The translations under genes were made by a program, and so were the position numbers. The notes below the pieces were generated by a model. It was not told the DNA's origin. It worked only from the letters and a program-made list of their open reading frames with translations, and ran no database searches. From Candidatus Brocadiia bacterium (GTDB taxonomy: Bacteria; Planctomycetota; Brocadiia; SM23-32), in NCBI GenBank assembly GCA_046538485.1, contig JBKHIT010000001.1:96001-160000 (forward strand): a stretch of 64,000 nucleotides of DNA, read 5' to 3'. This document shows positions 29,707-32,457 of the stretch, in pieces (positions within the stretch are counted from its first letter, which is position 1; every line of letters starts with the position of its first letter).

Positions 29707-32457
29707 TCAGGGGACAATCCGTTCGTCATCCCACAGCAGGCTGTAATGGTCCCAGTTTTTCGCAGACGAGTAGGGATCCCAGGAGTATCCCCAGCCGCCC
29801 CAGGGCGGGGCTTTCAGAAAGAATGCTGAGCCACCCCGTCGCAGAATGGTTATGCCGCGATCCCCATGGGGCAACGGTGTATTACCGTCCACACGGCAGG
29901 CGTTCAGCGGCCACCACGGAATGGGCAGACGACGGCTCTTTTGTTTCGCTCCGCCGCTGCCGTGACCGGTACTGTAAACCGCTGGAACGTGGTAGCAATA
30001 ACCGGCCTGGCGGTTACCCCAGTATCCGGTCCGCGAGTACTTACCGGCAGGGCAATATTGCATCTCAAATCGGACATAATTTCCCAGCAAACCGAAACCT
30101 TTGGGGTTATCCGGATTCCCATGCAATCGTCTATCGCAGAGCCAGTGATAATTATCCGGCAGATACGATTCGTTATCCTCCGCATAGAACATGATACCCA
30201 GGAAAATCTGTTTCTGTTGATTCAGGCAGACGGTCGTTTTCGCCGCCTCCCGCGCCCGCTCCAGCGCCGGCATAAGCATCGCAGCGAGAATGGCGATGAT
30301 CGCAATGACCACCAGCAGTACTATTAGAAGGAAGCCTCTGCGTGTTGCGGCAATCGGCTTCCTCCCACAGTCCAAACCGTGCGTGTGGTTCTCCCCCACA
30401 CGGCTCTCCACGCTGTAATTTCGCGCACAGCATTCGTCACAGTAGGTGAGGTCCATATTCAAGACCCTTCTCATAGAAGAAACTGTTCGGCCAGCGGCGG
30501 TATCCGACAATATCCTTGCGAGCACGGCGACGACGCAGAAATAAGCGAAGTTGCTGACACGCATAACTCGTCAGCTCCCGAGCGGCCTCGTAGGAATTGC
30601 CAATACGAAAATAATTCGCCCATCCCCGCAGCTTGCGGTTCAGGACCGCTATGGCCTCCATAAGGGGCTCGCCGAGTGGTATTTTCTTCACCCGCTCTTT
30701 GATTCCGGCTCGCGCCTTCTTCATACTTTTTGCTCGAGGGAACTTGATTCTCACATGCCGACGTCTCTCTCGGGAGTAGGCCTCCTTGTAAGTGAAGCCA
30801 AGGAAGTCAAATCCCTCCCGCACGTGGACCAATGAGGTCTTCGCGCGGTTGAGCATCAGATGCATCTGCTCCAGCATGTGCCGGGCGACTTTCAATGCCT
30901 GCTCGGCCTGCTGGGGACTGTCACAGAGAATCACCATGTCATCAGCAAACCGAACGAGCTTGCCGTTGTCGTCGTTCCACCTCCGGTCAAATTCATTGAG
31001 AAAGATGTTGCTCAGTAGCGGCGATATAACGCCGCCCTGAGGCGCCCCGACCTTCGTGGGGCTGACAAGGCCGTTCTCCATGACTCCTGCCTTGAGCCAT
31101 CGGCGAATGAGGTGCAGGACCCTTTTGTCGGTCACACGCCTTCTCACAAACTCCATAAGAAGCTCATGATTAATCGTGTCGAAGTAGCTCTTGAGATCAA
31201 GATCTACGACCCACTTGTGTCTGTTGGTTCGCCTATGCACCAGCTCCGCCGCCTCTGTGTTGCTGCGTTGTGGTCGGAAACCATATGAACACTCACAAAA
31301 GTCCGCTTCGAACAGGGGTTCAATCACCAGCTTCACCGCCATTTGAACCACCCGATCCTTCACTATAGGAATTCCGAGTGGCCGCTTGCTGTTCCAGCCC
31401 TTTTGGATATAGCACCGCAGGACCGGTAAAGGGTTGTAAGTCCCCGCTCGTAGCTCCTTCTGAATCTCTAAGAGGAACTCAACGGCTCCCTCCTCCTTGA
31501 TCTGTTCGATGGTCACTCCGTCCACCCCGCTGCTTCCAGCGTTACGGGCGACTCTCCGCCATGCCTCTTGCAGAATATCATAGCCGCACACCTTATCAAA
31601 CAATAGACCAAAACGTCTACCACTGCTGTTCTTGGCTGCTCCGTAGAGCTTCCGCTGCAAGGACCTGACCCACTCTTGCGACGAGATGTATATAGCCTTT
31701 TCGGCATTCATCTCAGGTCTACTCCTTACCTCGAAAACGTTTACAGGTTAATGGCCCTTTGCTACGGGCGTTTCTGCTGAGCGCCCGATCCTTGCTACTA
31801 TGACCATCTCCGACTCCCGTCGTGGCATCAGTACGGTCTTCAGCATCTCGCCTTGCCCCGCCACTTATCCTCCCGACGCCTCTCGTGCGCTTTGACCGTG
31901 GGCGGACGTCTGCCCATTGGCCAGGTTGTTTGGGGCCGGGACAACCCATGTGTTGTTCTAACCCGGAATCTTGGTCGGAACCACGACGGTCCTCCCCAGT
32001 TGCTCCAGTAAACTGTCCACACATACCGCCTCCTTTTACACCGCCGGCCGAGTGGTTGCTCTCTCCCATTTTCTTCACCACTCGCATCGGACTTCTCCTA
32101 TCGAACGGAGGATCGTCTCAACCGGATCACCTGACTCTGTCAGCAACCGCCGTCAGGCTACCTTTACGATGCCTACGGATGTTCGTTTTCCTACGGTCTA
32201 TGCGTTTGCCTGGCCGCTCGGACTGACTTTGAGTCCCCGCCCCAAATGGAACGGTTTCCCGTCTGGCGACTTTGTCACTGCGCGTCGGGGTCTCCCCCGG
32301 CAGTCAGACTACGTGTCCGAAATGAGAAATTGACACGACTGGGACTCTCGCCCAGCCAGCTTACCCAGCCTTACCTGGGCACACATTCAATGAGCGTAAA
32401 CCCCGTTCGGCAATAAGAGGTAATCCGTTTATTTTTCCGTCGCGTTCTGATAACCAA
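29707..32457 (-). CDS. Prepilin-type N-methylation/DUF1559-like protein interrupted by a group II intron (exon 1 32385-32457, exon 2 29707-30317; 227 aa spliced)
   Basis: Joining the exons gives [51 protein letters not shown]. Lengths 73+611=684 nt, in frame. AGGAGA lies upstream of TTG 32457. Confidence 0.9.
30318..32384 (-). mobile_element. Complete group II intron
   Basis: 5' end GTGTG, 3' end ..AGTAC. Domain V GAGCCGTGTG..CACGGTTT (30373-30408). Domain VI stem GGGAGGAAGCC/GGCTTCCTTCT with a bulged A. RT ORF inside; precise removal restores the host ORF. Confidence 0.95.
30437..31711 (-). CDS. ltrA: Group II intron reverse transcriptase/maturase (no endonuclease domain)
   Basis: [55 protein letters not shown] and [12 protein letters not shown] (domain X); 424 aa. 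Confidence 0.95.

Follow-up and report, generated by a model that had tools for sequence, protein, structure and literature searches.

How can a group II intron reside inside a host coding gene, within the very codons of its N-methylation motif? The question is raised by a stretch of 64,000 nucleotides (hereafter the window; positions 96,001 to 160,000 of contig JBKHIT010000001.1, assembly GCA_046538485.1, from a Candidatus Brocadiia bacterium), which is contig C44 of a source genome (G000) assembled to 5.19 Mb in 143 contigs and 88% complete. In it, as an earlier note made from the DNA alone had claimed, an intron of 2067 nt sits exactly within the N-methylation motif of a prepilin-type gene, between the codons for F-T-L-I-E plus one base and those for LLVVIAII. 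In the usual view, bacterial group II introns keep out of host coding genes because splicing there is costly. The lineage described here lives inside a host gene family and points to two testable answers to the cost of insertion: first, an exon-binding site (EBS1) that is tolerant of synonymous codon changes and so opens over a hundred targets per genome and, second, a domain VI that would at the same time encode the motif once more and, in part of the copies, would carry a promoter and a leader. From comparisons of sequence and predicted structure we consider it probable that the window intron, the one copy in the source genome that encodes a reverse transcriptase (RT), belongs to a lineage that retrohomes to DNA encoding F-T-L-I-E plus one base and builds domain VI from a copy of the motif.

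Exon 1, the intron, the RT open reading frame (ORF) and exon 2 all lie on the minus strand. Exon 1 (32457-32385) has a TTG start with AGGAG 11 nt upstream, and comprises a leader, 24 codons up to F-T-L-I-E, and the first base of the next codon. The intron (32384-30318) begins with GTGTG and ends with AGTAC, and exon 2 (30317-29707) encodes the LLVVIAII helix and the body of the prepilin-type protein, stop codon included. Read across both exons, the product has the expected G/A-F-x-x-x-E followed by a hydrophobic helix. As is usual for group II introns, domain IV encodes an RT/maturase, here of 424 aa (31711-30437), which matches RVT_1 (1.6e-41), GIIM (3.7e-11) and TIGR04416 (415 bits, cut-off 300); Pfam and NCBIfam scans of this protein found no match to an endonuclease domain. 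EBS1, GTTCGAT (32106-32100), forms the loop of a 4-bp hairpin (32110-32095) and pairs at 7/7 positions with the last 7 nt of exon 1, the expected contact with an intron-binding site; EBS2 and EBS3 were not located, and a candidate EBS2, CGTAAA, was dropped because by eye it did not fit the exons of other copies. Domain V (30408-30373) was placed by a match to RF00029, by alignment and by folding, and its helix is found in eight of nine aligned copies and in folds, the ninth (L180) being without its 5' strand.

Specificity for the prepilin N-methylation motif

A search of the source genome with the intron DNA, which the earlier note had called for, found eight intron 5' ends, and all eight follow F-T-L-I-E plus one base (C or T), which is more than chance would place at the same codon position. 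Since the DNA upstream of these ends is mutually unrelated and holds no domain V within 330 nt, they mark eight different genes and not a tandem array. The window copy carries the sole full-length RT of the lineage in this assembly. Five copies at contig ends are 100% identical over their visible 42-51 nt to the copy at C20:82316, to which the one at C20:86865 matches at 96%. The C20 copy is without RT and retains a mini-ORF equivalent to RT residues 317-424, with 87-88% identity. Unitig depth, which is not a copy number, is 167-182 for the ORF-less variant versus 24-34 for the window intron, and the contigs from four DNA runs contained neither an intron-less allele nor a join across the intron.

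Targets are plentiful. A six-frame scan of the source genome for F-[TS]-L-[IVL]-E returned 171 matches, of which 133 continue into a hydrophobic helix and represent empty sites, nine precede GTGTG (the eight introns and one orphan at window position 42782), and the remaining 29 are other, mostly chance, matches. The loop GTTCGAT is common to six copies and its partner is the last seven exon bases, A-T-Y-G-A-R-Y, with G or U opposite all three positions that vary synonymously, so that most paralogues are targets: pairing is 7/7 at 87 of the 133 empty sites, 6/7 at 44 and 5/7 at two. The many homing sites per genome that the earlier note had anticipated are thus present. In a relative, L092, the loop is TTTCAAT and its own exon ends in ATTGAAA, a change on both sides of the pairing. 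Folding of the 50 nt ending at the insertion site gave no better hairpins for the eight occupied sites than for 128 empty ones (p = 0.72), and therefore no hairpin requirement of the IIC type was seen; the sites lie within coding motifs and not after a terminator or attC stem-loop, where class C introns insert.

Relatives were collected by RT-based searches, whose outcome does not depend on the insertion site; species genomes contributed 77 loci and metagenomes 80. Six loci have an RT identity of at least 58% (L012, L089, L090, L091, L092 and L093), and in five of them (all except L090) the 5' junction could be read with at least 15 nt of exon and lies at the motif. L092 and L093 are one locus, with the motif F-T-M-I-E plus A; for L090 only the last four exon bases are visible, and they are consistent with the motif. 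A genome of the same family (G024) added one further junction at the motif (L169). Counting the eight junctions of the source genome and five distinct ones among relatives, 13 of 13 independent junctions are at the motif. Run over 65 loci, a covariance model built on the opening 93 bases of the intron gave 17 matches: the seven strong ones (at least 83 bits) are the motif lineage, and among the nine of the ten weak ones whose flanks were read (RT identity of 56% or less; L101 is the same record as L016) none is at the motif. Three of these other introns (L019, L110, L014) follow the Q-x-C-x-x-H motif of an IS256/mutator-type transposase, a family name read from the translated flank, and L097 and L108 (RT identity 40-46%) follow terminator-like hairpins. 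The earlier suggestion that the lineage is a specialist of one multicopy family, here with the N-methylation motif as its site, is borne out by this partition, since identities of 58% or more go with the motif and those of 56% or less with other sites.

Considered in their own right, RT relatives with 42-56% identity (L014, L015, L046 from a Cardinium record, L110 and L019) form a sister lineage on another multicopy gene, placed after the transposase Q-x-C-x-x-H motif. The source genome also holds four group II-type RT matches of other lineages, with 34-46% identity to the window RT (C99:8594-9769, C120:7485-8456, C113:35705-36511 and C97:165576-165830).

The lineage is patchy in assembled genomes, which are mostly fragmented, repeats breaking contigs. 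The 5'-end pattern matched two of 31 genomes in a family sample (G000 and G024), and a pattern of domain V plus the strand that follows it, allowing up to three mismatches, gave real matches only in G076 among 401 genomes of the phylum; pattern matches in three other genomes of the phylum were chance occurrences in unrelated coding DNA. There was no match to protein P0070 at E <=1e-110 in 121 genomes of the Lentisphaeria class, and none to the 5'-end pattern in viral contigs. In the protein database, RTs with 53-100% identity make up at least 120 clusters, most of them encoded on contigs only about 2 kb long. The locus L012 belongs to a metagenome-assembled genome (G440) labelled as Bacteroidales and with one motif match only, and its 2.9-kb contig may be mis-binned.

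Domain VI and a second copy of the motif

The intron closes with a copy of the target motif, which takes up its final 16-19 nt. In the window these are the last 19 nt (30336-30318), which read in the frame of exon 2 as G-F-L-L-I-V, a decayed G-F-T-L-I-E. Relatives have an intact motif copy just before the LLVV codons: F-S-L-V-E and F-S-L-I-E in the G076 copies L180 and L184, and in L092 an ATG followed by F-T-L-V-E and then by the body of a pseudopilin that resembles GspG and is encoded in a type II secretion operon (names read from the translation). In these compact copies (window, L092, L180, L184) the motif copy stands with no gene start in between. The segment directly after domain V is complementary to this second motif, and in the window the two strands (the first, or anti-motif, at 30371-30356) enclose a loop of 19 nt (30355-30337).

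In our alignment of nine copies (A3; 13 pairs, 117 cells) 99.1% of the cells of this 13-bp helix are paired, and both sides change in seven of the 13 pairs. None of 500 shuffles reached any of the measures, and with the partner slid by 1-3 columns only 27-58% of cells were paired. Likewise, when the stretch running from domain V to the proposed 3' splice site was folded to minimum energy, the helix with the last 16 nt formed in all nine copies, loops of about 140-170 nt included, and the duplex of each copy with its own partner has an energy of -14 to -24 kcal/mol; in L170 the pairing reaches into the copy's own Gly codon (-23.4 kcal/mol). All nine share an unpaired A, without exception 8 nt ahead of the proposed 3' splice site, so that the segment has what defines a domain VI, namely a helix in which one A is left unpaired at a distance of 7-8 nt from that site; in the window copy the candidate branch point is the A at 30325 (or 30324). 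In the Leu codon the unpaired position is the third, and it is A in ten of ten intron motif copies versus 15 of 133 host motifs in the source genome and none of eight in G076. G024 is AT-richer, and A is common at this base there, which makes the comparison non-discriminating in that genome. The sister lineages have an ordinary domain VI without resemblance to their own 5' exon.

From the covariation, the folds, the invariant unpaired A and the mimicry-free sister lineages we conclude that the second motif is in all likelihood the 3' strand of domain VI, with the predicted 3' splice site directly after it and, for the window copy, standard geometry. The domain VI structure itself is well supported by covariation, on the evidence of these aligned sequences.

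Host gene expression and competing explanations

In five relatives (L012/L090, L091, L170, L175 and L177) domain V and the second motif are 177-210 nt apart, the loop taking up about 140-170 nt. Each of these loops contains a T-rich stretch that resembles a promoter, a Shine-Dalgarno sequence of the GGAGG type and an ATG with a leader of 10-22 aa in frame with exon 2. Since a gene start, a leader and an intact motif are all within the intron, the downstream reading frame is complete without splicing, which suggests that in these relatives the interrupted gene could be expressed unspliced. The earlier note had proposed that expression of the host protein depends on splicing. This probably stands for the window copy, which has a short loop and whose motif copy is decayed, so that its host gene should need splicing; it may not extend to the five relatives. 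In favour of the loop promoters, a pattern of TTGAC, T-run and TATAAT was found in only two of 128 ordinary upstream regions of the source genome. The junction of intron end and exon 2 in the long-loop copies is a full target again, and in the tandem at L091 a second intron begins directly after the motif copy of the first.

In the mechanism we propose, the lineage would retrohome into the DNA for F-T-L-I-E plus one base of prepilin-type genes. The window copy would splice by branching at the unpaired A and rejoin the motif to LLVV, and its RT may be supplied in trans to at least seven ORF-less copies that keep only the maturase-domain mini-ORF. In the long-loop relatives the promoter-like stretch, Shine-Dalgarno sequence, start codon, leader and intact motif would allow the host gene to be expressed unspliced, and the target site would be rebuilt at the intron 3' end. 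More tentatively, and with somewhat less than even confidence, domain VI could be regarded as a cargo bay, with one strand that is a translatable motif and a loop that holds promoter, ribosome-binding site and leader, such that each insertion would install a complete 5' end. The motif would then be a safe harbour because the prepilin leader is removed or dispensable. If this were true, insertion would be near-neutral even when unspliced, the rebuilt target would permit tandem arrays, and large paralogue families would over time accumulate leader and promoter turnover, orphan leaders and double-motif genes.

Several observations weigh against such a mechanism. Splicing, the branch point, promoter activity and mobility are predictions. 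At its 3' end the window intron matches RF00029 (domains V and VI, 30318-30408) with 33.6 bits (E 4e-4, in E-value mode), under the gathering score of 40, and an Rfam scan of the window at the gathering threshold gave no matches. The nine aligned copies are related, which inflates the shuffle statistics. The 3' sides of six of the eight copies in the source genome are missing from the assembly, as judged by a search for exon-2-like starts and by BLAST with the C20 copy; and the C20 copy, the only ORF-less one with a 3' side, pairs poorly (-5.3 kcal/mol), its exon 2 broken or replaced by unrelated DNA. A copy in G024 (G024:C151) breaks off after domain I. In a consensus promoter scan the L175 loop (TTTGCA, 18 nt, TATAAT) was the only one to pass; that of L012 failed with a 13-nt spacer. 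The Shine-Dalgarno and leader part of the G024 loops resembles the 5' regions of ordinary paralogues, and the promoter region of L199 (one gene) resembles the L177 loop, and so what looks like cargo in the loops could be the 5' region of a downstream paralogue, captured through a deletion.

The most serious alternative, which we nevertheless regard as unlikely, extends this last point: homing to the motif would be real, and the downstream motif, leader and promoter would belong to the next gene, a deletion having fused the intron to the 5' region of a paralogue. The long-loop copies would then be splicing-dead relics and their self-rescue an unselected by-product. The resemblances of the G024 loops and of L199 fit this explanation, as does the tandem arrangement of the genes (three in a row in the window), and so do the decayed copies (C20, G024:C151 and C120, the last a fragment) and the orphan leaders on C112, on C7 and at window position 42782. 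Against it, the strand after domain V covaries with its particular second motif in the long-loop copies too, as in L170, where it extends into that copy's own Gly codon; the candidate branch A is kept in all copies; L175 and L177 have in common the junction from anti-motif into loop; and the compact copies have their motif copy without an intervening gene start.

An improbable alternative places the introns in orphan or decoy leaders that already stood ahead of intact genes; the motif and the segment after domain V would then be complementary without any RNA function. Intron-less double-motif genes (three on C73, one each on C19 and C23, and seven of 11 loci in G005) are what it would expect. 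It accounts poorly for the compensatory changes in seven of 13 pairs that no shuffle matched, for the loss of pairing in the slid controls, for a helix in the folds of every aligned copy, for the lack of mimicry in the sister lineages, and for a window copy with no gene start of any kind between its two motif copies. Finally, a one-off insertion of an ordinary group II intron without site specialisation, of the sort by which bacterial introns occasionally land in coding genes (see the review PMC4424553), is refuted beyond reasonable doubt by the census of junctions, all 13 of which share one codon position.

Retrohoming to the motif, with domain VI built from a copy of it, is thus the reading that we prefer. 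If confirmed, it would be a novel means by which a retroelement renders its insertion harmless, and a source of promoter and leader turnover in very large prepilin-like families. It would also imply that a domain VI loop can reach about 170 nt, and a wobble-tolerant EBS1 would be a natural design for targeting a whole gene family.

Known systems, host paralogues and possible remnants

The nearest solved structures to the window RT are of group IIC (7uim, 4e-61; 6ar1, 9e-58), in a Protein Data Bank that covers few intron classes. The window lineage is like the group IIC introns (B.h.I1, GsI-IIC, the Eubacterium rectale intron) in its small RT with no endonuclease domain matched, and some of its RT relatives (those with 40-46% identity, L097 and L108) likewise follow terminator-like hairpins. 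Group IIC introns target terminators or attC, and homing is a feature of all lineages except class C, according to one review (PMC4424553). The window lineage, in contrast, would home to a coding motif through a 7-nt EBS1; on its best RT matches it could be a member of class C.

A parallel to the promoter-like stretches is S.ma.I2, an IIC-attC intron for which an intron-borne promoter was proposed to restore expression beyond the insertion (Leon et al. 2010, PMC3001079). Here, too, an intron-internal promoter-like stretch could serve the gene past the insertion. In that report, however, the IIC-attC promoters are located in domains I-III on the bottom strand and are directed outward through the 5' end, the intron being antisense to the cassettes, whereas the stretch found here is in sense, within the loop of domain VI, and is accompanied by signals for translation (ribosome-binding site and start codon), by a leader, and by a coding motif copy that would itself be a domain VI strand. 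B.c.I4-type introns are reported to have a 3' extension of 53-56 nt and to splice beyond domain VI (PMC1865049, PMC2691827). They resemble the present case in a 3' splice site far from the standard domain VI placement and in extra RNA at the 3' end. In those introns the extra segment comes after domain VI; in the present lineage it is domain VI that is lengthened, by a loop of up to about 170 nt, and the predicted splice site is at the usual distance from the unpaired A.

As with other introns whose homing site is a conserved motif in a gene of many copies, including the sister lineages L014, L110 and L019, a single coding motif offers many targets per genome. Here, though, the target is a host protein family with at least 133 copies per genome and not a mobile element, and the transposase-motif lineages are without mimicry of the 5' exon at the intron 3' end. 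Some integrating elements carry a copy of the end of the tRNA gene that they disrupt, which keeps the gene whole. The likeness is one of analogy only, in that the element brings a replacement for the part of its target that it cuts off; these elements use a recombinase, and it is the 3' end of the gene that they replace and not the 5' end. In the literature, searched without most subscription journals or supplements, we found no description of introns in the motifs of prepilins, pilins or pseudopilins, nor of a coding domain VI strand, and the putative combination of a motif copy in domain VI with cargo-bearing loops appears to be undescribed as far as could be searched.

The interrupted gene is preceded on the same strand by two paralogues (32516-33394 and 33542-34504), each with an empty target site on the minus strand (33334-33319 and 34456-34441, respectively) that pairs 7/7 with EBS1. 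The scans covered these neighbours and the exon 2 product. In Pfam the neighbours match N_methyl (PF07963) and no other family, TIGR02532 from NCBIfam is found in both, and the exon 2 product had no Pfam match. The H-X9-DG domain TIGR04294 passes in one neighbour only (21.9 versus a cut-off of 19), is under the cut-off in the other and is absent from the exon 2 product; PF07596 (DUF1559) had no match at E <=0.001 in the exon 2 product or either neighbour. The label 'DUF1559-like' that the earlier note gave to the gene is therefore not sustained.

Of the 133 genes of the source genome, 131 have G or A as the residue preceding the motif F, and in G076 it is G in eight of eight. G024 and G005 have K, R, E, D, N, Q, S, L or A at this position, whether the gene is an ordinary one or the leader lies in a loop, which makes the loop leaders look like those of their own genome. 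The comparison drew on loci L189-L217 (G005, G024 and G076) and on the source genome, and the residues of G024 and G005 are odd for substrates of a classical prepilin peptidase.

Possible remnants and duplications of the motif are found at several places. In the window, at 42782-42757 on the minus strand, an orphan R-G-F-S-L-I-E plus C, with an in-frame stop upstream, is followed by GTGTGTCCCA and then by unrelated ordinary genes; judging from its sequence, it may be the remnant of an occupied site. Orphan leaders that end in the motif with unrelated DNA next to them occur elsewhere in the source genome, at C112:39537 (+), C7:84045 (-) and C20:83223 (+), and on C112 a second leader, with motif and intact body, follows about 243 nt after the orphan one. 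The intron-less double-motif genes of the source genome (C73, C19 and C23) have a first motif, a linker of about 16 aa (L-P-F-D-x-L-R...) with a small hairpin and an ATG, a second motif, and LLVV, and in G005 the double motifs (L198, L201, L204, L210, L213, L215 and L217) have R-Q-R and then the motif again. The double-motif genes could be scars of insertion at the motif, and together with the orphan leaders they hint at a shuffling of leaders between paralogues. Just downstream of the interrupted gene, at about 29510-29650, contigs of the four runs pile up with several small indels and a summed depth far above that of the flanks, which suggests a short repeated element.

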